A stretch of DNA of 64,000 nt from Candidatus Latescibacterota bacterium (GCA_965206595.1 OZ242214.1:3776001-3840000), one strand, 5' to 3'. Numbered from the stretch's first letter, positions 37,897 to 58,312 are shown. The notes: a model not told the origin generated them from the sequence alone. A program made the numbers and translations.

Positions 37897-38832
37897 CTAT
37901 TGCTGTCGGCCGGGGGATTGAAATACAACCGGGGGCACCCGCTGACCGATTCCGAAACCGGGTTCGATGGCGCCGTCCCGCTCCACGATCCGGGCTTTGC
38001 ACAGCTGCGAGCCGAGCACCTCATTGACCTCGACCAGGGCCACCTGCCCACCCCCCTGGTCGTAGAGGGGCAACACGTCGCCCTGCTCTACGTGGTTCTG
38101 ACTGCCGATGCCGAGAAAAACCTCGTTCTCCTCTACCGACAACACCTTGGCATTCTCGCCGAGCAGGTCTATTGGAGGACGTTCGACCAGGGCCCTGACG
38201 ATCTGCGTGCTGAGATCGCCGAAAGCCTGGGCCGTCAGTTCCCCGAGCTGCAGTTCGAAAAACCGGTCGGAAGCGAACTCGGTGGAAAACAGCTCGCGAA
38301 ACTCCTTGTCCTGCTGCCGGGGCCGGCCGAACAGATCCAGTCCCAGCGGCCGCTCTTCCGATTTCCTGGACACGTCGAGGACATCGACGTCCTCTCCGGT
38401 CGCGACCTTGATCAAACGCACATCGCTGAGCGCGACCTGGGACGAATAGCTCTTGTAGCCGATGAGGTTGGGATCCCCCGCGGTGAAGCGGCGCATGCCG
38501 AAGCGATCCACTCTGCCGACGATGACGAAATCCGCCTCCAGGCAGCGGCCGAGGCTGACGGCGTTTTCCCCATCCTCCAGTTCTTCCCGCGCCGCCAGAA
38601 CCGAGTCCATGGGCACGACGTGAACGGTGGCTGCCTTCGACAGATACTGCCCCAGCAGCACGGGGACATCCCTGGCCAGGTTCCAATCCCCCTGAAACCC
38701 CGCGTCATCCTCGAAAGGCAGCAGGGCAATGCGCAGCGGGCTGTCGCCCTGCCACCGAGCCTTGGTTTGCGCCGGCGCCCCCAATCCACCGAAAACCACC
38801 AGGAGCCCGTTGAGGGCGCACAATCCCCTCAC
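37897..38832 (-). CDS. Exported CsgG/TolB-N-like domain plus FlgT-C-like domain protein
   Basis: Signal-like N-terminus. RIALLPFED...LGRCLEADFVIVGRVDRF is a CsgG/TolB-N-like fold. The C-terminus AKVLSVEENEVFLGIGSQNHVEQGDVL...VALVEVNEV is FlgT-C-like. Its start overlaps the upstream stop. Confidence 0.65.
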   Translation of the reverse strand: MRGLCALNGLLVVFGGLGAPAQTKARWQGDSPLRIALLPFEDDAGFQGDWNLARDVPVLLGQYLSKAATVHVVPMDSVLAAREELEDGENAVSLGRCLEADFVIVGRVDRFGMRRFTAGDPNLIGYKSYSSQVALSDVRLIKVATGEDVDVLDVSRKSEERPLGLDLFGRPRQQDKEFRELFSTEFASDRFFELQLGELTAQAFGDLSTQIVRALVERPPIDLLGENAKVLSVEENEVFLGIGSQNHVEQGDVLPLYDQGGGQVALVEVNEVLGSQLCKARIVERDGAIEPGFGIGQRVPPVVFQSPGRQQ

Positions 38833-39617
38833 TGTTCAGAATCCGTCGCCTGCGTCACTGCCGTCTTCTCGATTTTCCGATCGAATTCAAAAAAGATGTC
38901 CACCGTTTCCAGGGGCTGTCCGGAGGCGTCGAATTTCAGCACGAAATCCTCGAGGGTGAGCTGTACTCGCGCCACTTCTTCATCCAGGGGAGCAAACGCG
39001 AGCATGCCGCTGTAACTCTCACCCTTGAACACCCGCGTATCTTCGAGGTATGCCGAGCTGCGCACATTCCCCATGCGCGTGTCGAAGCGATAGAACTCGT
39101 TGCCGCTCTGACCGCGGACGCTGCGGTAGTAGCGTTCGAAACTCTCGTGCGGGGAATGGGACGGAATACCGTAAGAGTGAAGTACCTCACCGAGGTCGGT
39201 GCGGAGCACGGCCGCGAGAGGATCGAGCAGGACCTTGGCATAGGTGTCATTGCTCACCGTGATCCTGAAGACGGTAAAGCGATTCGGCGTGTGCCCGAGG
39301 ACCGGGTCGATCCAGTTGCCGTACGTGTAGGGATTCGTCGAAAAACGACCCCGGTAGGAATCGTCGGGGAACTCCCCGTTCAGGGCCTCTTCCGTCATGT
39401 ATTCGACCCTGATCCGCAGGCCCGAAAGCGAATAGGTGACGGCACCGTCCCCCTCGACGATATAGCTGTCCGCAGAAGCCTGCACGGCCTGCGGTACGAG
39501 ATGGCTGTTGTAGAGGATCGCCGGAGGCGTGAGAAAACACCCGCTCAGAAGCAGCCAGAATATGCCGAAGGGCATGGCGGACGATCTTGCCGATTTGCCG
39601 GGTTCGGGGATTTTCAT
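38829..39617 (-). CDS. Hypothetical lipoprotein
   Basis: Lipobox LLSGC after a hydrophobic stretch; beta-rich body (NPYTYGNW, FTVFRITVSN). 4-bp overlaps with both neighbours. Confidence 0.7.
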   Translation of the reverse strand: MKIPEPGKSARSSAMPFGIFWLLLSGCFLTPPAILYNSHLVPQAVQASADSYIVEGDGAVTYSLSGLRIRVEYMTEEALNGEFPDDSYRGRFSTNPYTYGNWIDPVLGHTPNRFTVFRITVSNDTYAKVLLDPLAAVLRTDLGEVLHSYGIPSHSPHESFERYYRSVRGQSGNEFYRFDTRMGNVRSSAYLEDTRVFKGESYSGMLAFAPLDEEVARVQLTLEDFVLKFDASGQPLETVDIFFEFDRKIEKTAVTQATDSEQ

Positions 39618-40870
39618 TCTACAGCACCGCCTTCACTGAAGTAGTCGATCTGCTGCTGCGCGATGGAGCCTTCCTGGGTCAGGGCAAAAACGACGACGTT
39701 GATGCCAAACCGCAGCTGCGGCTCATTGCCGAAATTCTCCGCCCATCTGTGGACATAGCCCTTGTCCGAGTACAGGGCGACGAGACGGTTGCCGATGAAC
39801 ACACCTTCGAGCCGATACGACTGCTGCGGGAGAATGCGGCCGGCGATCGCCCACTGCTCCTGTTCCGACGGAACATCCAGCTCCGATCCCACGGGAGGAC
39901 CGTCGAAATCATAGAACACGTGGTAGAGGGGATGGGTATTCGGTATGGGTCGAAACTTGCCCTGTGTCCCCAGTGCATCGCGGAAGATCTGGCGCAACGA
40001 CGCCTCTGCCTGGCTGTACTCCAGCGTGGCATTGGCATTGTCGGCGAAGATGAACCCGCCGCGGCGCATGTATTCTCCCAGGTTCGTGAGCTCCCTCCCC
40101 GTCAGTTCAAAAGCCTCTTCCGCGGTGATGTAAACGAAGGGGGTGCGAAACAGCTCCTGTGAATCGACGAAGAGATGGGCATCGACCCTGGCCGTGATTC
40201 CAGTCTGGGCATTGACTGCGTCGACCAGGTTGGGAATCGCTTTTGCAGCGCTGTCGAAAGCCGGTTCCAGATCGGTAGCCCACGCCGTACCCAGGTACAC
40301 AAACCCCTTGACTTTGCGGCGATCCGTCGGATCCTGAATGATGAGGCCCTTGTACTTGCCGGTATCGAGTGCATCGAGGTCGAGCAGCTCCTCGCGCATG
40401 GCGATGCGCTTCTCCGGCTCTTTGGTCCCGGTGACCCTCGCCGCCGAGAACTGGACGGGTCCGGTCTGAAGGTCGATCTCGACACCGGTGTCGATGGCGT
40501 ACCCGAAGGTCTCGACTCGCCCGAACATCGACGCTCCCGCGAGACCCCTGGACGCGGGCATGGACAATCTGGGCTTCAGGGCGCTCACCTTTTTGGTAAT
40601 GGCTCGCGGCCTCAGGCGCTGGCGCTTGAGCTGGAACGGCTTTGTCGCCCGCGGCTTGCGAATGATGAGCCTGGCGACAGCGGGCGGCGGGGCCTCATCC
40701 TTCGGCAGCGCCACCAAGTAGACGAAGGCCACCCCCAGGAACCCCATGCTGATCAACAGACCGATGGCGACGAGCCGGTTGGTCTCGCCCCGCAGGCGGG
40801 GCCGGTCGATGCGATCGCTCGGGGCGCCGAAGCGGGTGAACGCAGTTGTCGTGAGGTTCGCGTCCATCAT
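39614..40870 (-). CDS. Membrane-anchored DUF4159-domain protein with extended Pro/Lys/Arg-rich linker
   Basis: TM segment LVAIGLLISMGFLGVAFVYLVAL, then linker PPPAVARLIIRKPRATKPFQLKRQRLRPR. C-terminal PFVYIT, NLGEYMRRGGFIFADN, HPLYH..YDF, LEGVFIGNRL, GINVVVFALT. Confidence 0.8.
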   Translation of the reverse strand: MMDANLTTTAFTRFGAPSDRIDRPRLRGETNRLVAIGLLISMGFLGVAFVYLVALPKDEAPPPAVARLIIRKPRATKPFQLKRQRLRPRAITKKVSALKPRLSMPASRGLAGASMFGRVETFGYAIDTGVEIDLQTGPVQFSAARVTGTKEPEKRIAMREELLDLDALDTGKYKGLIIQDPTDRRKVKGFVYLGTAWATDLEPAFDSAAKAIPNLVDAVNAQTGITARVDAHLFVDSQELFRTPFVYITAEEAFELTGRELTNLGEYMRRGGFIFADNANATLEYSQAEASLRQIFRDALGTQGKFRPIPNTHPLYHVFYDFDGPPVGSELDVPSEQEQWAIAGRILPQQSYRLEGVFIGNRLVALYSDKGYVHRWAENFGNEPQLRFGINVVVFALTQEGSIAQQQIDYFSEGGAVE

Positions 40871-41250
40871 TCGGGAACCGACAGGCTGACCACGGTCGAG
40901 GCCGGCCCCAGAAAAGCGTTCTCATCGGCGGCCCTCACCTGGACCTGGAGCACGGAACCGGCTTCGAGACTCAGGCTGGTTTCCTCGAGGCTTCTCGCCT
41001 CCGGATCGTCGACCGAGCGCGTCTCCACGCTCCCCGTTGCGTCGGTAAAACCGACGACGAAGGCGGCGACGTTTTGCGTCGAGTCGATCTGCCAGGACAC
41101 CTGGACCGCGTCCCCATCCACGCTTGCCTCCACATCCGTCGGCGTCGCGAGGTAATTCTGGTGGTACTGCTGGGGCATCTCGACATCGTTGCTGCAGCCC
41201 AGGGCGATGACGAGCATGGCCGCGAGCCCGGGAACCTTGGCTATCGACAT
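40867..41250 (-). CDS. Small lipoprotein with fibronectin type III-like domain
   Basis: Start refined to ATG 41250 (MSIAKVPG). Lipobox IALGC; FN3-like TPTDVEASVDGDAVQVSW...VQVRA...GPAS. Confidence 0.7.
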   Translation of the reverse strand: MSIAKVPGLAAMLVIALGCSNDVEMPQQYHQNYLATPTDVEASVDGDAVQVSWQIDSTQNVAAFVVGFTDATGSVETRSVDDPEARSLEETSLSLEAGSVLQVQVRAADENAFLGPASTVVSLSVPE

Positions 41251-41284
41251 TCGCAGTTGCCTTCCTCGAACCGGAACGGGGGAC

Positions 41285-41848
41285 TTAGAAGCGGGCCACG
41301 ACGGCCGCTCCGGGAGTCCCGGGATTTGCAAACGGCACAACGCTCACCGACGCGTCCGCACGAGCCGCGGCCCCACCGAGGACCAGGACGTCGACGAGAT
41401 TGTAGCCATACACCGCCACGGCGAGAGCACCGAACAGCCGGCGCCGCGTGTGCGAGCTATCGAGATCATCCTTTTTCTCCGACAGCCGCTGCCAGCTCTC
41501 TTCGGCTTCCTCGAAAGAGCCGCCCTGCCGCAGGGAATGGTAGCGCTCCTTCTCCAGGCTGAATTGCGCCGACTGGGTGTTGTAATCCTCGTGCGATGTC
41601 AACCAGACCACCAGACAGGCCACCTCGGCCACCACCAGGGCGGTGCCGCGGCTGCGATGTCCGGCCGCCAGCTGTCCCAGCCCCGGGAACACCGCGGAGA
41701 GAGCGATTGCCCGAGGCCGCGTCAGCGCCTGCTTGCCGGACCCGAGCCGTTCGCCCGGCGCATCCTCGGCCTGCGTTTGAGCGCCGCCCGCCAGCAGCGC
41801 TCCCATAACCATTGACAGCACCCACCCTCGCTTGCTCATACGCTCCAT
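41285..41848 (-). CDS. DUF5683-like exported/membrane protein
   Basis: Signal peptide; ALSAVFPGLGQL motif; VYGYNLVD; C-terminal VVARF. Confidence 0.65.
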   Translation of the reverse strand: MERMSKRGWVLSMVMGALLAGGAQTQAEDAPGERLGSGKQALTRPRAIALSAVFPGLGQLAAGHRSRGTALVVAEVACLVVWLTSHEDYNTQSAQFSLEKERYHSLRQGGSFEEAEESWQRLSEKKDDLDSSHTRRRLFGALAVAVYGYNLVDVLVLGGAAARADASVSVVPFANPGTPGAAVVARF

Positions 41849-41911
41849 GACGCCGTCTCAAATGGCGCCCCCGTGATGTCCTGCGGTGTATGCACGTCGA
41901 AAAGACCCCGC

Positions 41912-44900
41912 CTACAACCGGGTCGAGACGATCCAGTCCCTGTGCGCCTTGGCGAACTGGAACACCTCTTTGCTTGCCCGTTTGTCTTCGTACATCTCGA
42001 TCACCCGGTCGTATGTCTCGACTGCATCGCGCCATTGACCGAGGCCTTCCAGACAGACGCCCATGTTGCTCAGCGCGCCCAGCGCACTCTCCGTGTCCGG
42101 ATAGCGCGCGCGAATATCCTCGAAAGAGCTCACGGCGCGCGCGAAATATTGCTTCCTGATGGCCCCCTCCTCCACCGCCTCGGCCGAATCCATCAAGGCG
42201 ACCGCCCGCTCGTAATGATCGTAGGCGATGGCCTCCGTGATCTCGGAGATCAGGCGCGGCACCTGGGCTGCCACTGGATCTTCCGGAAAGCGATCCTGGA
42301 CGAGCTTGTAGGCCAGCATCGCCTCTTCATATGACCCGCGGTTATAGGCATCGTCGGCGAGAGTGAATTGGGCAGCGGCTGCGAATTCGCTCTGCGGATA
42401 GCGTTCGAGGAGTGTTCGGAAAGCTGCCATCGCCTCCGCCTCCCGTTTCAACTCGAGCAGACACCACGCCAGATTGTACTGCGAGTTATCGGCCGTGGTA
42501 TCGTCGGGAAACCTTGTGACAATACGGCTGTAGTAGGGGATGGCAGCTTCGAATTCCCCCAACTGGTAGTGGCTTTCGGCGAGGCCGAACAGGATATCCT
42601 GCAGGGCACGCGCCTGCGGATAGTCGCGCAGCAGCTGTTCGAACATGGTCCAGGCGTCACGGAAATCCCTCAAGCTGTAGTGGGTATTGGCCAGGTAGAA
42701 TCCCACCATCAGACGGTGGTCCGGACCCAGGTCCGCGGCCGCCAGATCCGTGAAGACCTTCCTGGCGCGCTCGAGCTCTCCCCGGTCGAAATAGTGAACG
42801 CCTAGGGTCAACCGCATGTCCGTGGAAAAAAACGAGGCCGGGAACCTGCGCAGGGCCTCCTGAAACACCTTGGCCGCCTCGGCGCTACGGCCCATACGTG
42901 CCAGCGCATCCCCTAGCAGGAAGTAGGCCTTCTCCGCGCGGCCGTACTTCTGGCCCGGTGCCAGCGCATCGTCGAACTGCAGATCGATCAGCTGCCTGGC
43001 GACGACGATCGTCTCCGCGAAGTTGTCGTCCTCGTAGTGGAGATCCATTACGCGCGTCAGGAGAGCGGCCTGTTCCTCGGGGGTCCCCGCCTCGGCGGCC
43101 ATGGCGGCGAGCGTCTTCACCGCCTCGCTGCCGCGGTCCTGCTTCAGGTAGACGAGCGCCAGGGCGTCCTTGGCTGAACGAACCTTGCCCTGTTCCTGTA
43201 CGTTTCCGGCGATCCAGTTGAAGTCCTCTTCCGCAAGACCGTACTGCCCGGCGACAAATGCGGCGTTGCCGCGGCTGAACCGCAACGCCTCTTCCAGGTC
43301 GGCACCGATTGGATAGGTAAGGGCGGCGGTGAAATGGGTTACGGCTGTGCCGTAGTCGTTCAGGCCGCTGTAAGCCTGTCCGAGGAGATAGTTGAAACTG
43401 GCGCGCTGAACGTCCTCGCCCGCCTTCGCCAGACCGGCCTCCAGGACGCGGGCAGCGTGATCGAAGCGACCCGTATTTACCAGGCTGTGCCCGGCGCCCA
43501 GGCGCGACCGTGCGTACAGGGAGGAGGTTTCCGGCACCGCCAGGAAAGCGGTCACAGCGCCGTCAAGGTCGGCCACGGCCTGTTGCGACAGCCCCAGGCG
43601 CATGTGGGCGACGTCGACGTAGTCGCTGGCGGCGTGGTTGTCGAGGAGCTGCCGCGCGCTCGCCGCGGCTTCGCCGTACCTGCCGCGATCGAAGTAGAGC
43701 TCCCCGAGCTGCACGAGGGCCCGGGCGGCCTGGCTCCGGTTTTCCGCCTCGTCGATGATCGCCCGGTATTCCGCCTCTGCCAGGGCAACGGAGTCGTCGC
43801 TTCCCAGAGACTGGTAGGCCAGCGCCCTGTTGAAGCGCGCGTCGAGGAAGTAGGATGACGTTTCATCCATGCACAACGTGTCGTACTGGGCGACGGCCAG
43901 CTGCAGCCACTGCCGGCCCGCACCCGGGCGGGCCTCGGACTCTTCCTCGTCGGCCAGCTGCTGATAGGCGCTGCCGATGCGGTAGCGCACACGGCCCTCG
44001 GGAAACCCGGCGACGTTGGCGATATCGGCGAATCCGTCGAGATAGGTTTCGTACTCCCGCACGGACTCCACGTAGCGGGCCTGCGAAAAGAAACTCTCCG
44101 CCAGGGCATACTGAATGCGCGCCCTCAGCGTCCGGTCGGAGGATTGATCGATCGCCTCCCGGTAAGTGCGGATACTGGCATCGAGATCTCCCCTCTCCCG
44201 ATGCAGGTCGGCCATACGCAGGTACGCCTCTTCGACCAGCTTGCGCTCCGAGCCGAACAGGGTGACCGCCTGCCGGTACGCCTCCAGCCCTTCGTCGTAC
44301 CGTCCCCAGCGAGCATAGGAGGTACCGATGCGGATCTGGGCCTTTGCAGCCAGCTCCAGCGCCGTCTCGTTCACCAGGCCGGCGATCTTCTCCCGCCGTA
44401 TCCGCCGCAACTCCACCTCGGTGAGATTTTCGATCTTCTGCCGGATTATCAACTGGCGGTAGCTGTCTATGGCCCGTGCATACCTGCCCGTCTCCAGGTA
44501 GCACTCGCCGATCTGGAAAAGGCTGCGATCGGCCTGGTACCCGCTGGGGAAACGGGCGAGGAGCCGTTCGAATGCGGAAATCGCCCGGTCGTATTCCCCC
44601 ATCTCGTAGAGCGCCCAACCCGTGTTGTAGTAGCCGACGATGACCTGCGGGTGGTCTGGATAGGCATTGATCAGTGCATCGGCCGCCTCGATGACCTGCG
44701 GAAACTTCCCGGCCTTGAAGTAGAGATCGATGAGCCGTCCGTATGCCAGGACCTTCAGGACTTCGCTGGTCGAACCGTCGATCACCTGTTGAAAAGCGTC
44801 GACAGTCGCTGCAAACGCCTCATCGGCCTGTACCTGCAGTCGTGCCCGCCCGACCTCGTCACCCTCCTCCTCCGCCTGCTGCGCGAAGCCGGCATGGAGC

Positions 44901-45172
44901 TTGGAGAAGGAATTGCCGATCTGGTAGTGGGCGGCTTCCTGGACGGGAAATTCATCATCACCCACGGCGACCTGGATGCCCTCCACGTCCAGGGCCCGGC
45001 TGCGTATCCGCAGGACCGCTTCGTACTTGGTGATCGCCTGATCGTAGGCACCTTCGGCATAGAATCGCTGACCCTCGCGAAAGGTGCTCACCATGTCTTC
45101 CTGGTTGGGCACACGCGAGGCGAGAAAGGTGCCCCCGGCGGTAATCAAAGTCAGCAAAAGAAAGAGGTTCAT
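41912..45172 (-). CDS. Large exported tetratricopeptide-repeat protein (BamD/CpoB-type TPRs)
   Basis: Signal peptide followed by many TPR units with YP/FP-S turns (LLARFPSG, LLERYPQSEFAAAAQFTLA, RYPDTE). Confidence 0.9.
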   Translation of the reverse strand: MNLFLLLTLITAGGTFLASRVPNQEDMVSTFREGQRFYAEGAYDQAITKYEAVLRIRSRALDVEGIQVAVGDDEFPVQEAAHYQIGNSFSKLHAGFAQQAEEEGDEVGRARLQVQADEAFAATVDAFQQVIDGSTSEVLKVLAYGRLIDLYFKAGKFPQVIEAADALINAYPDHPQVIVGYYNTGWALYEMGEYDRAISAFERLLARFPSGYQADRSLFQIGECYLETGRYARAIDSYRQLIIRQKIENLTEVELRRIRREKIAGLVNETALELAAKAQIRIGTSYARWGRYDEGLEAYRQAVTLFGSERKLVEEAYLRMADLHRERGDLDASIRTYREAIDQSSDRTLRARIQYALAESFFSQARYVESVREYETYLDGFADIANVAGFPEGRVRYRIGSAYQQLADEEESEARPGAGRQWLQLAVAQYDTLCMDETSSYFLDARFNRALAYQSLGSDDSVALAEAEYRAIIDEAENRSQAARALVQLGELYFDRGRYGEAAASARQLLDNHAASDYVDVAHMRLGLSQQAVADLDGAVTAFLAVPETSSLYARSRLGAGHSLVNTGRFDHAARVLEAGLAKAGEDVQRASFNYLLGQAYSGLNDYGTAVTHFTAALTYPIGADLEEALRFSRGNAAFVAGQYGLAEEDFNWIAGNVQEQGKVRSAKDALALVYLKQDRGSEAVKTLAAMAAEAGTPEEQAALLTRVMDLHYEDDNFAETIVVARQLIDLQFDDALAPGQKYGRAEKAYFLLGDALARMGRSAEAAKVFQEALRRFPASFFSTDMRLTLGVHYFDRGELERARKVFTDLAAADLGPDHRLMVGFYLANTHYSLRDFRDAWTMFEQLLRDYPQARALQDILFGLAESHYQLGEFEAAIPYYSRIVTRFPDDTTADNSQYNLAWCLLELKREAEAMAAFRTLLERYPQSEFAAAAQFTLADDAYNRGSYEEAMLAYKLVQDRFPEDPVAAQVPRLISEITEAIAYDHYERAVALMDSAEAVEEGAIRKQYFARAVSSFEDIRARYPDTESALGALSNMGVCLEGLGQWRDAVETYDRVIEMYEDKRASKEVFQFAKAHRDWIVSTRL

Positions 45173-45270: not shown

Positions 45271-48200
45271 TCAGTCGTCCTCGAATCCCAGGATGGCGTT
45301 GATGAAGGCAGCGGTGAAGCGCTCCCCCCGGAATTCGTCCGCCGCGGGATCATCGAACTTCTTTGTCCGCAGCCGCACGCCGGCGTTGGTCGAGATGATA
45401 TATCCGAAATACCTCGACAGATTCGTCATCATCAACACGGTGTCGCGCTGCTCGAAGCTCTCTTCCGGTTCGGCGAAATCGGTCACCGAGTAGGGGAACT
45501 TCGACGTAATCCCCTGCACACCGAGCTGAAAACGGGTTCTGGTCGTCAGGCGGTATTCCAGTTTCATCAGGGGAATGAGGTGCCGCTGGTGCGCAACGGG
45601 CAGATCCAGGCTGCGCTTCCACTCCTTCCGGTAGCGGATCTTGAAACCGGAAAAAAGACTCAGGCGATCCCAGATTTTCCAGTTGTAATCGATCCTGTGG
45701 GCCATCGTCCAGCGGCTCAGGCGATCGCTTTCCTGCCCGGTCCCGTCCCAGAGCTCCCCTCCGTGCTGATGGTTGACCTCGACCTTGACCTTGTTGTGCA
45801 TGGCGAGATTCGGCACGGTCCGCCAGCGGGCTTCGGTGAAAAGACGCACCAGGGTGCTGTTCTTGTAGTTTAGCGGATCTTCCAGCGGCTCTTCCTGAAA
45901 CGGCACGATGTTGATGTTGCGGGCCAGTCCCGGGAAGTTGGTTGCCTGAATATCCGCCTGGGTAAGGACCCTGTCGCTGTAGACGCTCAGCGGATCTTCC
46001 ACTCCGTCCCGTATGCGTTCCAGCGACAGCTCGGTGAAGAACCTGCCGATTGTCGGCACCTGCCGATTGTAGTCGAGGCGCGAATACAGAACCTCGCTGG
46101 GCACCGATCCGGCTATCTGTTCGGCGTCCAGCAGCCCCAGCGCCAGGCTCAGACCGGCGAGCGGTTTGTATTTTCCGTACAGGTGCATCCCCCTGAGATC
46201 GGGATCGTAGGGCAGGTCCGCTTCCCAGTCGTTCTCCCGCGAATCGATGAAATCGTTGTGGTTGAAATCGACGCCGTACTCGAAGACCTGGGGGTCGACA
46301 TCATACATCAGGAACGGTTCGAGGTCGTCGGGCTGCTGGTTCAGGTTCCGGTTGGTGTCGGGAATGCCGTCGTTGTCCGCATCGAGCCCAGGGAACACGC
46401 CATCGATATCGTGCTGTCCCTGCTTCTTGTCGAAATAGTTGGTGTACCAGCTGTCCGGATAGCGGTCGTTGTCGTCATTGTCCTCGACGAGCCTGTGAAG
46501 GATGGTGTTGTTGTAGGCGATCGGGGTCCCCGACAGATTGAACTCGTCGGCAGCGATGAAGCTGCGGAATTCCGTGGTGAACAAGGGGCCCATGGAAAAC
46601 AGTTCGCCGCGCAGGTCCCAGCGCCGGAAATCCCGATGCAGGGTCACGTAGTAGGCGTTGTCCGAAATGGTGTGGCGCGCTCCGGGAGTCTGTTCCCGCT
46701 CCAGGGCATTGATGGCGATGGCGTCCTGGGGAACGCGCGGTCCCGGCAGTCCGCTCGGGTACATTGAGAACTGGCTGCCGCGGGCGAACTCGGCGTTGAG
46801 CTCGAATCCCTTGACGACCCCGTAGACATTGGCGCTGGCCAGCCGCAGTCCCGTCGGCACCCCGACCTTTACCCGAACGCGCTTCGGCACCCCGTCCCGG
46901 GGATTGCCCCCGGCGCGGGCGACGGTGCGGAAGAACGGGGCGTAGCGGTAGCGGTCCTGGTGGCTGTCGGGGGGTAGAAACTCCGTCGACCGGGCAATGG
47001 GAATTTCCGACAGTTCAAGCCGGTAGTCGTTGGCCAGGACAAGCTCGACTTCGACCGAGGTTATGAACTGCTGCACGGACTCGAGGTCGATGTAGAGAAT
47101 GCCGTAGGTCTCGCCGTCGAAGGCCTGGGGAAGATCCTCTTTCGTGTACATACCGAGAAAATCGCCGGAGGGCTCGGCCAGTTCGTGGGCGAACTCGGAG
47201 TGCACGGTTTTTCCGCTTTCCTCGTCCACAACATGGTCGGGACCGTGGAGCTTGAAGTCCCTGTAGTAGAGGTGGTCGATGAAAAACGGGAACTCGTAGC
47301 CCCGGTAGAAGACGTCGACGTCGGTGGCGAGGTAGTTTATGTAGGATTCATAGGTGCTGAAGGCCCCGCCCCGGTTGACGGTCTGGTAGTCGTTGGAGGC
47401 CGGCCGCGGAGGCAATCCCTTGCGGTTGCCGTTGCTCAGCAGCTCCTGGACGTATATCTGGCGGTCGTCGCCGCGTTTGTGAAGGTGGACGACAAAGGGC
47501 TCCAACTCCGGGCGCAGGACCCCGTCCACGTAGACGTTGACGTCGTGCAGCACCGGTCCGCCCCGGCCATCCAGAGGCGAGTCATCGAGGATGCGGATGG
47601 CGATCAGTGCCGGCGCCGTCTGCACGGCCCCCGGCCTGCCCTGAAGGCTCTCGAACTTGCTCGCCATGAGCGGCTCGTACTGATGCACGTTGAGAAAGGT
47701 GCCGCCGAAGTTGAGGAACCCGACTTTGCGCTCGTAGTGAGCGCCCAGCATCATGGTCGGAACCCTGGCGTTGATGTCCCCGGCCGTGGACGGGCCCTGG
47801 CCGGAGTTGCGCGAAAAGGGGAGCGTCGAGAACAGTGCCGAGAAACTGTCTTTCCCGGTGCCGGCGTCGACCCTGAGACCGTTCAGATTGGAGAGTTTCA
47901 TCGTCAGCGGGGTCAACGACGTGCGGATCTCGTCCCCGTAGATGAATTTGGCCTGCCAGGCGTCGGTGCCGTCCGTGCCGACTATGACGTGGCCGAAGAG
48001 ACGCTCGAAGGCGTTTCCCGTCTGTCCGTGCCCGCCGCTTTCGCCGATCGCGGAGTAACCCCGCTGCACACCGAGGCCCCGGCGCTCGACCCAGGTAACG
48101 GCCTCGGTCCCGTAGAGCAGAGGGTCTCCCATGGAGTTGTAGTGATACCGGAGATTGCTGCTGAGCTCCGGCCGGCGGGAATAGTTCTCGAATCCGTAGT

Positions 48201-51233: not shown

Positions 51234-53933
51234 TCAGCCTATGAAGACCTTGAAGAAGTACTCCACGAATCCCACTGACGGCCGCTGCGATCCCGTGAAG
51301 CTGGTGGAGGTGCGGTAGCCCCCGAACAGAAGGGCGAGATCGTAGCCGCGGTGATTGCTCCTGTTCTGCAGAAACGCCGTGTACGTCCGGCGGCGGAAAT
51401 CCCGCTCGGGACTTGTCGGGTCGAGAGATTTCTCCGGCAGGAAGGGCAGACCTTGAACGCCGGTTTTCAGGTCCGTGTGCGGACCGATGCGGCAGTCGAT
51501 TCGCAGAACAGGGATGATCCAGCGCGTCTGCCGGTCGGGGATGGCCCGCTCGGGAAACTTGCTGCGCTGAAAAACATGCTTGAACTGCGGCAGGATGGTG
51601 AACCGCTTCAGGCGCCAGGTATAGTCGGCCATGTTGACCATGGCGAAGTGGGTGATGGTTCCCGGCGCCGCCGTCTTCGGATCGTCAAGGGACGGCCCCG
51701 TCAGATCGACATAGTTGAAGGAGACGACATTGCGAAAATTCAAGCCTTCGATGGTCTTCAGCTCGGTTTCGAAATGGGTCAGATTGTCGACGCTGTCCCG
51801 GCGCTGGAGCAGGTCCGGCTCCAACTCGTAGCGGCTCGAACGGGTCAGACCGGAGGGCAGCGTTTCCGTTTCGATGAACTGGTAGATGGTGTTGCGAATA
51901 TCGTCCTGCACCCACTTGATCCGGTGGTTAAGACGAATTTCACCCAGCTCTTCCCAAGTGCGCTCGTACCGACCTTCGAGATAACCGGCATCGTTGGACA
52001 AACCCAGAGCCGGCTGGCGGATGCGATAGGCCCCGAAACGCACCTTCGTGCGCGCCGTCGGCCTGACCGAGGCGAAGGCGTGCAGGCCGCGATGGTCAGC
52101 CGGATAGAGGTAATCCGGCAGATTGTCGTTTTCCCGCAGGTCGGCGATGCCGTTGTTGTTGAAATCGTCGCCGAACACCATTTCGGGCGGATCCACGTAG
52201 TATCCCAGAAACGGGGTAAATGCATTTCCGCCCACGTTCAGGTCGAGGATCCCGTCGTGGTTGAGGTCCAGCCCGGGAAAGACCCCGTAGCCTTCACCCG
52301 AAGAGCGCGTGAAAAAAGCAAGCGGATCCCCGTGTTCGGTCCAGTCGGGCCAGGCATCCAGATCGTCGTTGTCCTCGACTAGGGCGAAACGTTCGTAAAC
52401 CTTGCCGCCGACCGTGTGTCCGATAGCGGACCCGCGGAAGATCGAGAAATCGGTAGTGTAGTCAGCGGGGACATCGAACCACTCGATGCCGACGTCCGCT
52501 TGCGAACTGACTGGTCTAAGGAGGTTGAGGTAGAAAGTGGAACTGTCGCGATCGTGGCGGCCGCCGCCGGGTGAGGGCACCTTGAGAAACCGGGTGCTCC
52601 GGGCGAACTCCCCCTGGAGACGGCTTCCCAGGATTTTGGCTTCGAAGTCGAGCCCCAGTATTCCCAGCCCGGTTGGAAACCCGTAGCGGAAGGTGACGCG
52701 GCGGAGGTTGGAGTTGCTGCCTGGATTGCCGCTGGCCCGCAACGTGTTGTTCCAGTCGTAGAAGAGATCACCGTATTCGGTTCCGGAATCGAACAGCGGT
52801 ACCTGCATCCCTCCGACCACGTCGACGCTGTAGTCGTTGGCCAGAATGGCCTCGAAGCGAACGTCTTTCGTCGCTTCCGGAACCTCGTACTCGTAAAAGA
52901 TCACGTCGGTGCCGTTGGCTGCCAGGGGAGCGCTTCCCGAGGCCGGCGCCGCTTCCAGCGAGATCCGATCCAGCAAGATTGGAAAAAAACTTTCGTTGCT
53001 TGCGGCGACGGCTGCCGGCAACCAGGGTCCATTGCGCCGGATGTGCTCCACGTCTCCCGGACTCAACGGAATGGTGTTGCTGCGATCGAAAGTGATGGGG
53101 ATGTGCTCGAGGAGGCGCTCGATCCTTCCCACCCGGAGCTGCTCCACCGCCTCGCCGTCGGCAAACATCGTCACCCCGTAGATCGCCGCCCCCGGTGCCG
53201 TGTCGTGTGGCGCATCATCGGTAAAGAAGACGAACACCCGGCGCAGCCCGCCGTCCCGGACCACTCCCGGGACATCCCCCTTCAAGCCGTTGAGATTGGC
53301 ACTGGCCTCACCGTCGAAGCGGTGAGCGTTGACGTAGGTCGTTCCTATCCTGAGGAGGTCTCCGATCTGGCTCTCCCAGTGAGCGCCGAACAGGGTGGTA
53401 CCGAAAACTCGGCGCTGTTCGATAAACGCGTCGCTCGGCACATAGGAGCTGGGAGCTGTGAGCGGATCTCGCAGATGCGTGGCGATTACGCTGAATCTGC
53501 TTTTGCGCGAAGAGCCGTCCCAGCGGATCCCGTTGAAATTCGGGATGTTCAAGGTCATGGGAGTGAAGGTGGTGCGCAGGTGCTCACCGATTATCAGGCG
53601 GGTGGACCAGCGGCCGAACCCCTCGTCGGCGATGACGAGCTTCTGGAAGAAATTGTTATAGCCCCCGCTGCGCGCTTCGAAGCTGCCTATCCGGCCCGGG
53701 GCATTGCGGCGTACCTCGCTGAATTCCAGGATATCGACGCCATCGATCAGAAGGTCGCCGAAGATGTCGAAACGGCGGTTCTCCCCTTCGAAATCGTAGT
53801 CCCGGTAACCGTTGGCGCCGTAGTTCTCGAATACCTCGTTTGCCCACTGTGTGCGAAAGTCCCTGGACAGGAACTGGGCATCGGACGAGAAAGCTGACAG
53901 GAAAAGACAGAAAGACAGGCTGAGAAGACGCAT
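51234..53933 (-). CDS. Large predicted outer-membrane beta-protein, paralog 1
   Basis: Signal peptide; IIGEHLRTTFTPMTL..FNGIRWD, LVEDNDDLDAWPD, GVFPGLDLNHDGILD, PFLGYYVDP, RENDNLPDYLYPADHRG. Ends VEYFFKVFIG. Confidence 0.7.
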   Translation of the reverse strand: MRLLSLSFCLFLSAFSSDAQFLSRDFRTQWANEVFENYGANGYRDYDFEGENRRFDIFGDLLIDGVDILEFSEVRRNAPGRIGSFEARSGGYNNFFQKLVIADEGFGRWSTRLIIGEHLRTTFTPMTLNIPNFNGIRWDGSSRKSRFSVIATHLRDPLTAPSSYVPSDAFIEQRRVFGTTLFGAHWESQIGDLLRIGTTYVNAHRFDGEASANLNGLKGDVPGVVRDGGLRRVFVFFTDDAPHDTAPGAAIYGVTMFADGEAVEQLRVGRIERLLEHIPITFDRSNTIPLSPGDVEHIRRNGPWLPAAVAASNESFFPILLDRISLEAAPASGSAPLAANGTDVIFYEYEVPEATKDVRFEAILANDYSVDVVGGMQVPLFDSGTEYGDLFYDWNNTLRASGNPGSNSNLRRVTFRYGFPTGLGILGLDFEAKILGSRLQGEFARSTRFLKVPSPGGGRHDRDSSTFYLNLLRPVSSQADVGIEWFDVPADYTTDFSIFRGSAIGHTVGGKVYERFALVEDNDDLDAWPDWTEHGDPLAFFTRSSGEGYGVFPGLDLNHDGILDLNVGGNAFTPFLGYYVDPPEMVFGDDFNNNGIADLRENDNLPDYLYPADHRGLHAFASVRPTARTKVRFGAYRIRQPALGLSNDAGYLEGRYERTWEELGEIRLNHRIKWVQDDIRNTIYQFIETETLPSGLTRSSRYELEPDLLQRRDSVDNLTHFETELKTIEGLNFRNVVSFNYVDLTGPSLDDPKTAAPGTITHFAMVNMADYTWRLKRFTILPQFKHVFQRSKFPERAIPDRQTRWIIPVLRIDCRIGPHTDLKTGVQGLPFLPEKSLDPTSPERDFRRRTYTAFLQNRSNHRGYDLALLFGGYRTSTSFTGSQRPSVGFVEYFFKVFIG

Positions 53934-53942: not shown

Positions 53943-56090
53943 CTAATACACCATGCCCACGACACCCGCAGCGGTTTCGGCATCGGGCTCGATATCCACG
54001 ACCAGACGGTACAGGTAGAGTCCCGGAGGAAGCAGCTCGCCGCCCTGATCGCGTCCGTCCCATGAGAAGGGAAGTCCGGTCCGTCCGCCCGGGCCTGGCA
54101 CATAGTAACCGGCATCCAGGCGCTGGTCGGGCAGGGTCCGGACCAGAGACCCGCCAAGATCATAGATCCCGACCTGCACCGGTGCGTCGGACACGCGGCC
54201 CAGAATGAATCCGAGGCTGAACCTGTCGTTGATCCCGTCATCGTTCGGCGAGAAGACCGCAGGGAAAGGGTGCACATCGCTGAGAATGGAGAGAGCGAAG
54301 CTCGTTGCCGCCGAGACCACCGAATAGGGCTCTCCCGTCAGCGGATCCACTCCTTCCCGCTGCTGTACGGAGAGAGGAGAGTTGGAGTCGGGTGCGTAGA
54401 GCAACCCCTGGAATTCATGACTGGCAGCAAGCAGCCGGGTCGTGAAGGGGATTTCGAGTTCCAGGCTGGCGCTGATCGGGGGATCGAAGGCGATAACCAG
54501 CGAGTCAGCCGTCGCGTAGGTGCCCGCGGCATCGATGCCGACCTCTCCGCTCACCGCCGGGATATCGAGCTGTGCCGGCCATGGCGTCAGGATGACGAGC
54601 CGTTGGACGCCGGCGTCGTCATCTCCGATTTCCAGGTCGAGGGAATAGGTGAACGTGGAATCGACCCCGATCGACACCAGCGACGGCGCGATCGAGGCCA
54701 AGGCGTCGGTTGCTGCCAGCGGTCCTCTGTTGTAGAAGAAAACAAGGCTGTCGAGCTGCGGACTCGCGAAAGGATCGGGTGTCCGCATGCGCAGTTGGAA
54801 CTGGAGAAAGCGCCGCGGTTCGGGTACGGTCAGGCGAGTCTCCGGATCCGGACTCCAGGCCGACCAACCGCTCCAGTTCTCCCCGTCGTCACCGCTGCGG
54901 AACTGGACTGCTATTTCAGCAGTGGCCGAAACGGAATCGAAGCGCACGGCTCGGTCATAATTTTTACGCTCGGGGACACCGAAATCCAATGGTGGAGACA
55001 GATAAGTCCCCCTCTCATCGAACCCGTTTCCGAAGACTTCCAGCTCCCCCACTCGCGGAGCGGCGTTGCGATTGGCGAATTCGGTGACCACCATGCGGAC
55101 ATAGCGCGCGATGATGGTCGCAAAATCGACGGCGGTCTCACGGAAGTCGGTGATCTGGTTCCGGGAGCCCACATCGAGGTAGCTCACGCCATCCTTGCTC
55201 ACCAGAACACTATAGCCGCGCAGCGAGTTGTCTTCGTAGCTTCCGGAGCTCCCCGGGGGCTGCGTTATCACCTTGACGCGGTTGATGGGAAACAGGCGCC
55301 CGAGGTCGACCTCGACCTCATCGAACAGCACCCTGCCCCCCTTTGCATAACTGACCGGGGAACCGATATCGCCGTCGATGAGCTTTAGGTCCTTCGAGAA
55401 CGTGTTGAAGGCGAGATTCTGTCCCTCAAAAGAACGCAGCCGCAGGCCGCCGCGACTGCCGTCGAGACCCCCGGGGAATCCCGCCACGGATCGCGCTCTG
55501 GTGAGATCGAGGTCGGCGAACTCGGCAAATCCGCCCGGGTCGAGGCTGCCGGCCTGGACCGAACGCCAAGTGACTGCCGCTTCCTTGCCGTCCACGTCTT
55601 CGCTATGACTGGACAGCTTGTTGAGCCGCAGCGTCATCCAGTCGGCGCCGTCTTCGTTGTCGAGAGCGAAGTCGGTCCAGAACCACGGTGTCAGGCGGTC
55701 GGTGGGAGAACTCGGCAGGAGTACGCCCTCGGCCTCCAGCACGACGAACATCCCATAGCCTCCGGAGGTCCCGTCGTGCTCGACGACCGCAGCGACCATG
55801 TTGGTACGCCTGTTGAACGGAACATCGTAGACCTCAACCGATCCGGGGTCGTCGTCCGTTCCAACCAGATCGCCGTTGAGATAGAGGCTGTAGCGATCCG
55901 CAGCGGCGATGCGGATGCGGCCATCGACAGCATCCGCGAATTCGGCGAAACCCAGGTAAAAGGTTGTGGTTGCCCACGTATCGACGGAAGCGCGTTCGAG
56001 GATCTGGGAGGAGGCCTGCGAAGCGATTGCCGCCACAAGCAAGGCACTCGGAAGGCGCCACCCGGCTCTATGTAGTGGTCCGGTTCCCAA
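53943..56090 (-). CDS. Secreted protein with lectin-like and discoidin (F5/8 type C, CBM32-like) domains and C-terminal FlgD-Ig/CHU_C-like domain
   Basis: Likely TTG start near 56090 before the signal peptide (WRLPSALLVAAIASQASSQ). Motifs IAAADRYSLYLNG, VEVDLG..PINRV...YSVLVSKDG...ARYVRM...ELEVFG and FSPNDDGIND...IYDLGGSLVRTL...WDGRDQGGELLPPGLYLY. Confidence 0.75.
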   Translation of the reverse strand: MGTGPLHRAGWRLPSALLVAAIASQASSQILERASVDTWATTTFYLGFAEFADAVDGRIRIAAADRYSLYLNGDLVGTDDDPGSVEVYDVPFNRRTNMVAAVVEHDGTSGGYGMFVVLEAEGVLLPSSPTDRLTPWFWTDFALDNEDGADWMTLRLNKLSSHSEDVDGKEAAVTWRSVQAGSLDPGGFAEFADLDLTRARSVAGFPGGLDGSRGGLRLRSFEGQNLAFNTFSKDLKLIDGDIGSPVSYAKGGRVLFDEVEVDLGRLFPINRVKVITQPPGSSGSYEDNSLRGYSVLVSKDGVSYLDVGSRNQITDFRETAVDFATIIARYVRMVVTEFANRNAAPRVGELEVFGNGFDERGTYLSPPLDFGVPERKNYDRAVRFDSVSATAEIAVQFRSGDDGENWSGWSAWSPDPETRLTVPEPRRFLQFQLRMRTPDPFASPQLDSLVFFYNRGPLAATDALASIAPSLVSIGVDSTFTYSLDLEIGDDDAGVQRLVILTPWPAQLDIPAVSGEVGIDAAGTYATADSLVIAFDPPISASLELEIPFTTRLLAASHEFQGLLYAPDSNSPLSVQQREGVDPLTGEPYSVVSAATSFALSILSDVHPFPAVFSPNDDGINDRFSLGFILGRVSDAPVQVGIYDLGGSLVRTLPDQRLDAGYYVPGPGGRTGLPFSWDGRDQGGELLPPGLYLYRLVVDIEPDAETAAGVVGMVY

Positions 56091-56239: not shown

Positions 56240-56273
56240 AAAAAAGGTGCCACCGGGAACTACCGGTGGCACC
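56240..56273 (-). terminator. Intrinsic terminator after the first gene of the envelope operon
   Basis: Perfect 11-bp stem GGTGCCACCGG/CCGGTGGCACC with a 6-nt loop, followed on the minus strand by TTTTTT, 20 bp after the stop at 56294. Confidence 0.85.
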
Positions 56274-56293
56274 CCGAAACAACTGCAAGCTCC

Positions 56294-58312
56294 TTATTTG
56301 AGGAAGGTGACCTTCTTGCTGAGGCTCAGATTGGGAGCTTCGATCTTGTAGATGTACACGCCGCTGGACACTTCCACCCCGTCGGCATTCCTGCCGTCCC
56401 AGGTGACCTCGAAATTGCCGGCGGGCAAGCTCTCATCAACCAGGTCGACGACGAACTGGCCTTGAGTGTTGAAGACTTTGACCGACACCGGCGCTTCCCA
56501 CGGAAGGGAGAAACGGATAGTGGTTTCCGGGTTGAAAGGATTTGGAAAAGCATCGCCCAGGGCAGCGGCATTCGGCGTGGCATCGCCTTCGACCTCCTCG
56601 ACCGCAGTCGCCGGGTCCCCGAGGCTTACGCGCTTCTGATCGTACGGCAACTGCACGAGCCAGTGGAAAGAATAGTAGCTGACGATCTGGTCCTCGGTCG
56701 GGGGCGGTGCCCAGTCATTCGTTCTCTGGCCGGGGTCATTCTCTCCGACGCTGATGTACATGCCGTCCCAAGCACTGTCGTCGTGATCGACGATCATCGT
56801 CCACTGCGGGTAGGAACTGGGGATATTCGTCGGCTGCAGCAGGAACAGGCCCGAGCCGTCGCCGCCGAGCACGGAACCGTAATCGGTGAGGTTCACGGCG
56901 GAGTGACCGATGGAGATCCAACCCCATTTGGTCGAGTTGAACCCGTACTTGGCCCCGTCGCCCGAGGTATTGCCGTAGGTGGGCTCGGCGCCGAAGCTGC
57001 CCGGGACATACATATCGCCGAAGCCGTCGCCGTTGCGGTTGATCCATCTGATGCCACCGCTGTCGTAATCCATGCTCATGACGATGGAGGTGTGGTGACC
57101 CGAGAGGGTCAGGCCGGTTGGATCGTTCTTGCCGGCGTAGTCTCTGGCTGACCAGCCAGGTCCGCCGACGCGGTCGCTGCCGTTGTTGTCATACAGAAAG
57201 ATGTCGGACAGATCCCACAGATCGAGATTTTCACCACTGTCCAGATCCCAGACCGCAACCGTGCCCACTGTGCCGTCTACGCCCGTGGTGGTGTAAATCT
57301 TGTTGTTGCCGGGATCGACTGCGACTCCGTACTTGCGCGTCGGCTGAAGCTCTCTGTAGTCGATGAAACCGTTGACGGCCCCATGGTCCGCACCCCAGCT
57401 CTCGTCGACGGAAGCCGACTGTGTTGCCGGATCGTAAGAGCCCCTGAAGAGCAGTCCGCCACCCTGATTCTGGCCGTTGGCAACGTACGTCCGCATATCG
57501 TCGGTGACGTTGCCGCTGGTTCCCAACGGAGTCATGTCGAAGACGTGAAACGGCAGGGGGCGGTCGCTCTCCGCCCACCAGAACACGTGCCGGCCGACGG
57601 GAATGTCGCCCGCGTCGGGGGCTGAATTGTGGATTTCGGTGCGGTCGATGTACGTCGCCGCTTCCGGGTTGTTGATGAAGTCGTTGTTCATGTCGACGAC
57701 CCACTCGTAGGGCCGCGTCAGCGTCTCGGCGTCGGGATCGATGATGAGCATTTCGCCCGTTCCCTGCCTGCCGGGAGCATAACCGACGATGTGCGCCGTG
57801 GCGTCGGCGTCGAAGGCTGCGAGGAACAGGTCGTACGAACCCCGGGACACGACGTTCCCTTCCATGTCGCGGCCGTTCCAGACAATGGTGTTGTCGCCGG
57901 TGTCGAAACGTTCGCCGGAAGACCTGTAGACCAACAGGTCCACGTTCTGGTAAACATGCCAGCCCGGCTCGGCGTAATCTCCGAGAACGTGCGGAGCCGG
58001 TCCTTCACCTGTGATGGTCAGCGGCGGATTCTCTCCCTTGGTGTAGATGATCAGCCACACGGTAGCGGAACCGCTCTGCGTTCCTTCGAGCGTGAAGGGA
58101 ATGGACAGATCGGAACCGTCGAATGCGTAGTCTTCTATTGGTGAAAGACCGCTGATGACGACCGTCTCTGGACGGCCGCCGCTGGTCATGTCGTTGAGCC
58201 CCAGACTTCCGTCCCCCACGAAGCGCGAGAAACGCTCTTCCTGGGCATTCGACACACCCGCAAGGAGCACCAGGGATGCCGCTCCTGCTCCAATTATGCG
58301 ATACAAAGACAT
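56294..58312 (-). CDS. Secreted protein with N-terminal FlgD-Ig-like domain, central beta-propeller-like region and C-terminal FlgD-Ig/T9SS type A-like domain
   Basis: AGGAGG RBS and signal peptide (VSNA|Q). N-terminal GDNTIVWNGRDMEGNVVSRGSYDLF. C-terminal FPNPFNPETTIRFSLP...VFNTQGQFVVDLVD...VTWDGRNADGVEVSSGVYIYKI...KKVTFLK. Confidence 0.85.
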   Translation of the reverse strand: MSLYRIIGAGAASLVLLAGVSNAQEERFSRFVGDGSLGLNDMTSGGRPETVVISGLSPIEDYAFDGSDLSIPFTLEGTQSGSATVWLIIYTKGENPPLTITGEGPAPHVLGDYAEPGWHVYQNVDLLVYRSSGERFDTGDNTIVWNGRDMEGNVVSRGSYDLFLAAFDADATAHIVGYAPGRQGTGEMLIIDPDAETLTRPYEWVVDMNNDFINNPEAATYIDRTEIHNSAPDAGDIPVGRHVFWWAESDRPLPFHVFDMTPLGTSGNVTDDMRTYVANGQNQGGGLLFRGSYDPATQSASVDESWGADHGAVNGFIDYRELQPTRKYGVAVDPGNNKIYTTTGVDGTVGTVAVWDLDSGENLDLWDLSDIFLYDNNGSDRVGGPGWSARDYAGKNDPTGLTLSGHHTSIVMSMDYDSGGIRWINRNGDGFGDMYVPGSFGAEPTYGNTSGDGAKYGFNSTKWGWISIGHSAVNLTDYGSVLGGDGSGLFLLQPTNIPSSYPQWTMIVDHDDSAWDGMYISVGENDPGQRTNDWAPPPTEDQIVSYYSFHWLVQLPYDQKRVSLGDPATAVEEVEGDATPNAAALGDAFPNPFNPETTIRFSLPWEAPVSVKVFNTQGQFVVDLVDESLPAGNFEVTWDGRNADGVEVSSGVYIYKIEAPNLSLSKKVTFLK

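Follow-up and report, generated by a model that had tools for sequence, protein, structure and literature searches.

A conserved module of giant outer-membrane barrels linked to an ExbB-type motor in Latescibacterota, and a candidate role in glycan capture

We analyzed a 64,000-nucleotide stretch of DNA (the window) from the genome of a Candidatus Latescibacterota bacterium (G000:C1:3776001-3840000; the genome is a single contig of 7.05 Mb). A prediction made from the sequence alone had singled out 11 genes at 37897..58312, which we number G1 to G11 in transcription order, as a candidate undescribed outer-membrane machine, possibly powered by ExbB-type motors. We find that these genes belong to a conserved and unnamed machine of the cell envelope that is linked to an ExbB-type motor and is apparently undescribed. 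Its architecture is well supported, and we infer its function. The conserved core consists of a giant beta-barrel, a tetratricopeptide repeat (TPR) protein, a protein with a transmembrane (TM) helix and a DUF4159 domain, the lipoprotein G10, the motor proteins ExbB and ExbD, and a lectin-like cargo of the kind exported by type IX secretion systems (T9SS), with its own small shuttle. We see about an even chance that this is an ExbBD-energized machine for capturing and importing large glycans or glycoconjugates, with an action like that of SusC/SusD and with unrelated outer-membrane parts.

Results

The module is conserved and has its own motor genes

The original prediction was to be given up if its genes failed to co-occur in other genomes, and they do co-occur. 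We kept 80 loci from 223 relatives in GTDB genomes, and 32 of these loci are close orthologues. In 29 of the 32, a barrel gene is immediately preceded by G2, which encodes the lectin-like cargo, and in 25, three barrels and the TPR gene (G6) come next; the loci that fall short of this arrangement are cut by contig ends. Across 19 downstream regions, G6 and G9 (the TM-DUF4159 protein) are found every time, G10 in 18, and G7 and G8 in 16. The genes exbB-exbD-exbD directly follow G11 in 12 of these 19 regions and are inverted nearby in two more; another region has only an exbB, next to G9.

In the window, exbB is displaced and inverted (Table 1). Its identity to the exbB found after G11 in one orthologous locus (L091) is 78%, as compared to 30-34% for the other ExbBs of the genome, and judging by this identity it is the module's own motor gene, displaced. 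The exbD pair that corresponds to it lies before the window, and both ExbDs keep the TM aspartate, in the motif LTPLID. (Gene calls in this genome are approximate; one ExbD was missed by the gene caller and was recovered with tblastn.) Sugar-catabolism genes and a fragment of an insertion-sequence-like transposase (~21787-22882) lie between exbB and the exbD pair. We rejected misassembly as the reason for the missing motor genes at the G11/uxuA junction, which is spanned by single contigs in three of four sequencing runs; the fourth run covers the junction in a shorter contig. A 29-bp repeat unit downstream of exbB (window ~28594) is absent from the contigs of three of the four runs, and is a strain variant.

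Among 168 genomes from the phylum, we detected the barrel in 106, the lipoprotein G10 in 104, and the tail of the cargo in 105, and all 76 genomes of the host's family have the barrel. The families f2, f3, and f4 (56 genomes) yielded no barrel, G10, or cargo tail, and f14 gave one tail match in five genomes. All 61 genomes of these four families carry the T9SS translocon SprA, yet the barrel and G10 were detected in none of them. By this pattern, the module is not the T9SS core.

The giant barrels belong to an unnamed family

G3, G4, and G5 are paralogs of each other (27-32% pairwise identity, E from 1e-40 to 1e-74). None of the three has a match at E 0.1 in Pfam or NCBIfam, and neither G10 nor G11 has a meaningful family match in these databases. 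PF00593 (TonB receptor) has 20 matches elsewhere in the genome and detected three positive controls, but does not match G3-G5. Neither in sequence nor in fold do the barrels correspond to a known family, so there was no clean mapping onto known T9SS, Bat, or TonB components, which was the other outcome named in advance as counting against the prediction.

We modeled mature G3 with AlphaFold2, using an alignment of 85 sequences, and it confidently folds as a barrel (predicted local distance difference test [pLDDT] 87.3; predicted TM-score 0.86). The fold matches are outer-membrane barrels (MtrB, SlpA, LptD, TonB receptors, and PapC), but none is close: the best TM-score is 0.27, the best Z is 13.7 at a root-mean-square deviation (rmsd) of 7.7, and TonB receptors align with an rmsd of 8.9-13. 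From DSSP secondary structure, the alternation of short turns with long loops, and hydrophobic alternation (0.46 in the membrane strands versus 0.31 in other strands; strands 1 and 2 are weak), we estimate that G3 has about 24 membrane strands, give or take 2. About 49 residues precede strand 1, so there is no plug of the size found in TonB receptors. Two large insertions lie on the long-loop side: a beta-rich domain of 211 amino acids and an Asp/Asn-rich segment of 125 amino acids. The Asp/Asn-rich segment is the most conserved region of the barrel and may be calcium-binding.

The family is large, with 956 clusters at E ≤ 0.001 among 1.84 billion representatives. A search of the barrel profile against the sequences of solved structures gave one chance match and no real one, and a search of a plasmid collection gave no match. 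In the ESM Atlas, the barrel matched unnamed clusters (the nearest named family is DUF6029 at 0.89, which is only a lead), and G10 likewise matched only unnamed clusters. The near relatives of G3 carry the names Candidatus Latescibacterota or Gemmatimonadetes. G3-G5 belong to an unnamed family of ~900 amino acids.

The host genome has 32 barrel paralogs, in 14 clusters by our grouping. Two sister loci, at 3.73-3.76 Mb and 6.49-6.51 Mb, have their own copies of G1, G2, and G6-G10 surrounding three or four barrels. The remaining barrels lie in small cassettes with only G2-type genes and form their own clade (support of 1.0). In a midpoint-rooted tree that omits one near-duplicate barrel, the barrels of full modules group by their position in the locus, with supports of 0.91, 1.0, and 0.27 for positions 1, 2, and 3, which suggests that the three are old and distinct subunits. 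In the first sister locus, two adjacent barrels (G000:C1:3746753-3752554) have identical tblastn scores and share an N-terminus, which reflects either a tandem duplication of very recent date or an artefact of assembly.

A candidate force transducer and its lipoprotein partner

G9 is a candidate TonB-like force transducer, with DUF4159 in the place of TonB's C-terminal domain. A histidine in its TM helix, in a TonB-type pattern, is present in 34 of 34 metagenome-type copies and in the four copies from families f10 and f6 that were checked (4/4), and in 1 of 19 orthologues.

A structure model of G10 (pLDDT 91.6) matches Ig sandwiches with Z of 9.2 (4r4g) and 8.6 (3cfu), and a Foldseek search gave no match at E ≤ 0.001. 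We rejected the idea that G10 is a broken gene, as all 18 orthologues are equally short, and its Ig fold does not suggest an LptE-like plug. The tail of G10 varies with the version of the module. The G10 paralogs at both sister loci have a C-terminal AgmX/PglI domain, which is TonB-C-like (61 bits versus a cut-off of 40); f10 genomes also have an AgmX/TonB-C-like tail, 31 of 38 metagenome matches have a second DUF4159, and the window's subfamily has neither. These swaps point to the site where force might be passed.

Cargo and accessory subunits

The calls of FlgD_ig and TIGR04183 in G1 (the latter above its cut-off), F5/8C and CHU_C in G2 (the latter at its cut-off), TPR in G6, DUF5683 in G7, and DUF4159 in G9 all held up, and FN3 in G8 was recovered by profile. 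Export signals were judged from hydrophobicity and lipoboxes (the latter in G8 and G10).

The C-terminal domain (CTD) of G1 is of the type-A cargo kind (TIGR04183 at 37.1 bits versus a cut-off of 23, residues 589-668 of 672), and structure-profile searches with the body of G1 matched only FlgD. G1 is an accessory: it is terminated separately and is present in 21 of the 32 orthologous loci. G2 matches a lectin (6t0q, E 8e-14) and CBM32-like domains (E 2e-7 to 2e-6), and profile searches detected no catalytic domain in it. It ends in V-x-V-[AV]-Y, and its CTD scores 27.0 bits with CHU_C (cut-off 27) and 18.4 with TIGR04131 (cut-off 35).

The TPR protein G6 matches PorW/PorE only generically, as a TPR protein, and far under the cut-off. 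The FN3 profile matches G8 at E 1.5e-11, and fn3 was matched in 5 of 18 members of its family. The description of G11 as CsgG/FlgT-like was only weakly borne out, by a match to FlgT (3w1e) at E 0.024 and by below-cut-off matches; among 18 relatives, CsgG was matched in two and FlgT_C in two, and neither was matched in the window's protein. G11 was not detected in versions of the module with one or two barrels.

The host's T9SS

The genome has two classes of CTD protein. The G2 type has 59 members, of which 54 have an aromatic last residue; of the 94 others, 78 terminate in K or R. A barrel gene lies no more than 10 kb away from 35 of the 59 G2-type genes, as compared to 7 of the 94 remaining CTD genes and 3.6% of genes overall; conversely, a G2-type neighbor lies no farther than 10 kb from 31 of the 32 barrels. 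Another ~49 exported proteins of ~300 amino acids, one of them CBM9-like, end in a W-G-x-I-K-type motif (e.g., C1:327209-328108 and 888876-889799). Eight of their genes are near barrel cassettes, and the motif is possibly a further sorting signal.

The host has a T9SS: SprA and PorU are above their cut-offs, and a PorV-like gene adjoins porU. SprA is found in 163 of the 168 genomes. The original prediction had proposed a secretion and surface-display apparatus or a glycan-capture apparatus. A stand-alone secretion system that replaces the T9SS is not supported, as the host has these genes, and glycan capture is the better supported half of that proposal. None of the 11 genes is a T9SS core gene, and the CTD proteins are better interpreted as substrates of the T9SS that work for this machine; the T9SS probably delivers G2. 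A barrel-less remnant of a module of the PorP-containing type (Table 1) holds a PorP-like orthologue (G000:C1:222100-223035, 142 bits) and may supply the sole shuttle for the 59 G2-type proteins.

As had been claimed, no SusC, SusD, SprA, PorK-N, secretin, or ATPase family was matched among the 11 proteins, although some of these are present elsewhere in the genome.

Simpler versions of the module

A distant cluster of barrels, the one among ten clusters looked up that gave such names, includes members named Ignavibacteria and Bacteroidetes; it has 54 metagenome loci, with GC content of 0.32-0.58. The one-barrel gene order is cargo, PorP/PorV-like, barrel, TPR, G9, G10, plus exbB-exbD. Among metagenome loci that are long enough, the PorP/PorV-like gene lies by the cargo gene in 33 of 33, the TPR gene is present in 27 of 27, and motor genes are present in 24 of 24. 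The PorP/PorV-like protein has ~310 amino acids, and in the one copy scanned it passes the Pfam cut-off for PorP_SprF but not that of TIGR03519. Complete two-barrel operons with the same genes are found in four f10 genomes (G011, G015, G022, and G016). Some one-barrel modules (L125) also encode, among their own genes, a GHL10 glycoside hydrolase that has a CTD, and some metagenome copies (L125) have an OPT transporter and peptidases on their flanks.

Gene layout and neighboring features

All 11 open reading frames are on the minus strand at the predicted positions, with gaps of 9 bp (G2/G3), 2 bp (G3/G4), and 9 bp (G4/G5) and with 4-bp overlaps at G8/G9, G9/G10, and G10/G11. The claim of an 11-gene operon stands as regards gene order, but the term is loose: a terminator isolates G1, and just 21 of the 32 orthologous loci have G1. 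This terminator, a hairpin with a U-run at 56275-56244, was confirmed. It has the longest stem of the 16 terminator-like sites in our scan, a count that shuffled sequences also yield (16). The longest reading frame for G2 starts at 56288, which is upstream of the terminator, so that start is impossible. With a strong terminator between G1 and G2, G2 must start later, probably at TTG 56090 or beyond. A scan for sigma-70 promoters was uninformative (1 site versus 3.5 expected).

The module's neighbors in the window include GH32/43-like and UxuA genes. A short tandem repeat (TTTTACCACTAC-like, ~3 copies) lies at 58950-58985, in the gap upstream of G1. A gene for a DUF6785/DUF6784 membrane protein, which has ~42 paralogs in the genome, is at 60443-62377 (+). 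The region 12001-14000 has few open reading frames and a GC content of 0.50, versus ~0.63 elsewhere, and is possibly foreign or degenerate DNA.

Table 1. Features of the module and related genes. Positions are those of the window unless the contig is given.
Feature	Location	Strand	Description and evidence
G1	56294..58312	-	672 aa, secreted; internal FlgD-like Ig (PF13860, 1.5e-14), uncharacterised middle, type-A-like T9SS CTD (TIGR04183)
Terminator-like hairpin	56244..56275	-	G1/G2 gap; 13 bp stem + U-run; folding z -3.9; 0/200 shuffles as stable
G2	53943..56090	-	Lectin-like surface subunit; N-terminal lectin/CBM-like, CBM32-like F5/8C, conserved middle, type-B-like CTD (profile matches)
G3	51234..53933	-	Barrel 1, 899 aa; AlphaFold2 model, outer-membrane barrel fold matches
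G4	48433..51231	-	Barrel 2, 932 aa; G3 paralog; position-2 subfamily (clade support 1.0)
G5	45271..48423	-	Barrel 3, 1050 aa; paralog; position-3 subfamily (weakly supported, 0.27)
G6	41912..45172	-	Putative periplasmic TPR scaffold, 1086 aa
G7	41285..41848	-	DUF5683 protein; PF18935 above cut-off; in 21/27 metagenome loci
G8	40867..41250	-	FN3 lipoprotein, 127 aa; lipobox, invariant Cys, FN3 profile
G9	39614..40870	-	Candidate force transducer; N-terminal TM helix, Pro/Arg/Lys-rich linker, DUF4159 (PF13709, 1.6e-28)
G10	38829..39617	-	Lipoprotein; DUF4352/Mpt63-like Ig sandwich (model and fold matches)
G11	37897..38832	-	Exported; weak CsgG/TolB_N and FlgT-C resemblance; found only in this module subfamily
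exbB	27780..28532	+	ExbB/TolQ-type motor subunit (PF01618); displaced 9.4 kb and inverted
exbD pair	G000:C1:3760559-3761421		Partners of window exbB, 15 kb before window; 62% and 59% identity to L091 pair
Barrel-less remnant locus	G000:C1:215711-228894		PorP-containing module type; G11, TolB-like propeller, CBM9-like, G10, PorP/PorV-like, TPR, exbB, exbD, G9
SprA	G000:C1:6656656-6662829		Above cut-off
PorU + PorV-like	G000:C1:137853-143000		Adjacent

Discussion

A proposed motor-driven machine for glycan capture and import

Motor-driven work at the outer membrane is established for Ton, Tol, and Agl, and an ExbBD motor that is wired to an outer-membrane barrel implies that work is done there. 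We favor glycan capture and import because of the linkage to the motor, the two domains of carbohydrate-binding type in G2, the GHL10 insertion, and the joint multiplication of barrels and cargo; 32 barrels and 59 G2-type proteins would fit many substrates. We propose that G2 would be exported via SprA with the PorP-like shuttle (in this genome, the orthologue in the remnant locus) and would dock on the large outer domains of the barrels, with the three barrels as non-redundant partners in one complex. Proton flow through ExbBD would pull on G9, and the pull, relayed by G6 and G10, would open the pore, so that the bound glycan enters the periplasm. Cassettes of barrel and cargo that lack motor genes would share motors, as SusC/D pairs share TonB.

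Put more broadly, and with slightly less than even confidence, this would be an additional class of trans-envelope machine driven by a proton motor, next to Ton, Tol-Pal, and Agl-Glt. A DUF4159-tipped transducer would gate an unplugged 24-strand barrel (a hetero-trimer in this case), and the T9SS would install a substrate-binding lid. The class would be found in Latescibacterota and in at least some relatives from the Ignavibacteria and Bacteroidota.

Several observations weigh against capture and import. The window's copy is atypical: its G9 lacks the TM histidine, its G10 lacks a TonB-C tail, its motor genes are dispersed in the genome, and it has the extra gene G11, so coupling to the motor is less clear in this copy. 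In four of the 19 orthologous regions, a stretch of 19.5 kb held no motor gene. The barrel has no plug of TonB-receptor size with which to explain its gating. The host already has ~19 TonB-dependent receptors. (It has one canonical exbB-exbD-exbD-tonB set.) The neighbors of the small cassettes are mostly peptidyl-prolyl isomerases (PPIases), FG-GAP/ASPIC proteins, and TPR proteins, as opposed to hydrolases; the enrichment of DUF6785 permeases by barrel loci is weak (6/42, p ~0.01 uncorrected). CBM32-like domains also occur in adhesins. Finally, the 168 genomes are kin (76 are from one family), so co-occurrence among them is a pattern and not an independent or statistical test.

Alternative explanations

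The barrels might instead export or hold in place a layer of polymer or protein on the cell surface, comparable to what the Agl motor does with Nfs proteins for the Myxococcus spore coat. PapC and LptD, which are large unplugged barrels of 24-26 strands, are exporters, and both are among the fold matches of G3; genes for a PPIase foldase and a PMT-type glycosyltransferase-TPR protein lie beside small cassettes; and G11 is faintly CsgG/FlgT-like. But the fold matches are generic (rmsd of at least 7 for large barrels), the cargo already has a route through the T9SS, and the 11 genes gave no match to families of synthases, flippases, chaperone-usher subunits, or ATPases, so we consider export unlikely. 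We rate as somewhat less probable again a machine for surface movement or focal adhesion, which would combine a Myxococcus-type motor (one ExbB, two ExbDs, a TonB-like transducer, and a TPR scaffold) with a Bacteroidota-type adhesin (type-B CTD with a PorP/SprF carrier, as in SprB-SprF). The list of parts does parallel the Agl-Glt core complex (PMC3169522), and in SprB-SprF a motor moves a type-B cargo (PMC12635249). The AgmX/GltG-like tail on G10 paralogs and the existence of one-copy versions also fit. However, that tail is on a lipoprotein rather than an inner-membrane protein, and most metagenome matches of G10 have DUF4159 instead; the GltG and GltJ models score far under their cut-offs; and 32 barrels in 14 loci suit a diversity of substrates better than one motility engine.

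The placement of the cargo gene directly upstream of the barrel, together with a G2-type gene near nearly every barrel, raises the question of whether the giant barrel merely substitutes for PorP/SprF, carrying and anchoring type-B cargo with no transport of its own. The same arrangement is seen for porP/sprF in Flavobacterium (PMC12618676), and this locus has no PorP gene; TIGR03519 (PorP/SprF) had no match in the genome, but its control was also silent, so absence is not established. In the metagenome loci and the four two-barrel loci, however, a separate PorP/PorV-like gene accompanies the barrel, one such gene passes the PorP_SprF cut-off, and the host keeps an orthologue. Also, a single shuttle can serve orphan type-B cargo in common (PMC12618676), and a passive anchor would leave the motor genes unexplained. 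We therefore regard this substitution as quite improbable. The idea that the module energizes the T9SS in a lineage without PorL/PorM has in its favor our search for GldM/PorM, which found no match in the host genome or in 61 genomes of the phylum, with controls silent in both, so that absence is not established. It is largely refuted by the four families in which every genome has SprA and the barrel and G10 were found in none, and we give it almost no credence.

Significance

We found no description of the module in the literature, with subscription journals and supplements outside the search. Nor did we find any report on type IX secretion in Latescibacterota; the only mention of DUF4159 that we found was in a Pfam update, and the only one of beta-barrels in Latescibacterota concerned PQQ import. 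According to PMC4454575, Latescibacterota degrade polysaccharides and take up monomers through general porins. The barrel family, with its many copies in this genome and its presence throughout the host's family, would be a missing route for uptake or a missing surface route. If capture and import is correct, then the module would be a main route of glycan uptake in these lineages and would give a role to DUF4159, a candidate for a new transducer domain for ExbBD motors, and to DUF5683. It would also mean that the T9SS translocon, which is nearly universal in this phylum outside the Bacteroidota, feeds a second machine. One-barrel versions near proteins named Ignavibacteria may allow tests in cultured strains.

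Comparison with known systems

Like the TonB-dependent SusC/SusD systems of polysaccharide utilization loci in Bacteroidota, the module combines a barrel with a surface partner of glycan-binding type, has an ExbBD motor, and is present as many paralogous cassettes. TonB-dependent transporters have a barrel of 22 strands and an N-terminal plug of over 100 residues, whereas G3 has ~24 strands, only the short segment before strand 1, and no match to PF00593. The partner is a T9SS-type cargo instead of a SusD lipoprotein: there was no SusD family match in the 11 proteins, and G10 is an Ig sandwich and G8 is FN3. Also, the module's transducer ends in DUF4159, and the module has its own TPR protein and lipoproteins and up to three different barrels.

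With the 5:2 motors of Ton, Tol, and Agl, the module shares linked genes of the ExbB and ExbD types (dispersed in this genome) and the TM aspartate of ExbD. The transducers of these systems have a TM histidine (SHLS) motif, a linker, and a C-terminal domain of the TonB/TolA kind. G9 has a TM helix and a linker; the histidine is kept by its distant copies and missing from the one in the window, the C-terminal domain is DUF4159, and the TonB-C-like domain is on G10 paralogs.

SprB-SprF pairs a type-B cargo with a PorP/SprF shuttle, and the simpler versions of the module similarly have a cargo gene followed by a PorP/PorV-like gene, in a host with a T9SS (PMC12618676). In contrast to SprB-SprF, the module's CTD is under the TIGR04131 cut-off, the shuttle is outside of the locus in this genome, and the motor is an ExbBD module rather than the PorLM/PorKN chain. 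The PorP/SprF family (PF11751/TIGR03519, barrels of ~300 amino acids) had no match in G3-G5, which have 900-1050 amino acids.

The Agl-Glt core complex comprises AglRQS and GltD/E/G/C (PMC3169522). Agl-Glt/Nfs and the module have in common one ExbB-like and two ExbD-like genes, a TonB-like TM protein, a TPR scaffold, several barrels, and the AgmX/GltG-like domain (here on G10 paralogs). They differ in that the module's barrels are an unnamed family and its surface subunit has a T9SS-type tail. The Glt models reach at best 42 bits (NF033760, cut-off 650) and 20 bits (NF033761, cut-off 450), for the tail domain only, and match no protein of the window. The vWA-type motor-driven force transducers, whose function is given as unknown, have a TM helix with a His motif, a linker, and a C-terminal domain unlike TonB's, and they share with the module a neighboring TPR gene, one tolQ-like gene, and two tolR-like genes (PMC12204202). 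The module's C-terminal domain is DUF4159 instead, and it comes with giant barrels and T9SS-type cargo, which are not part of that text's description. By analogy, the module would act most like SusC/SusD, and its layout is closest to those of the Agl-Glt core complex and the clusters of vWA transducers.

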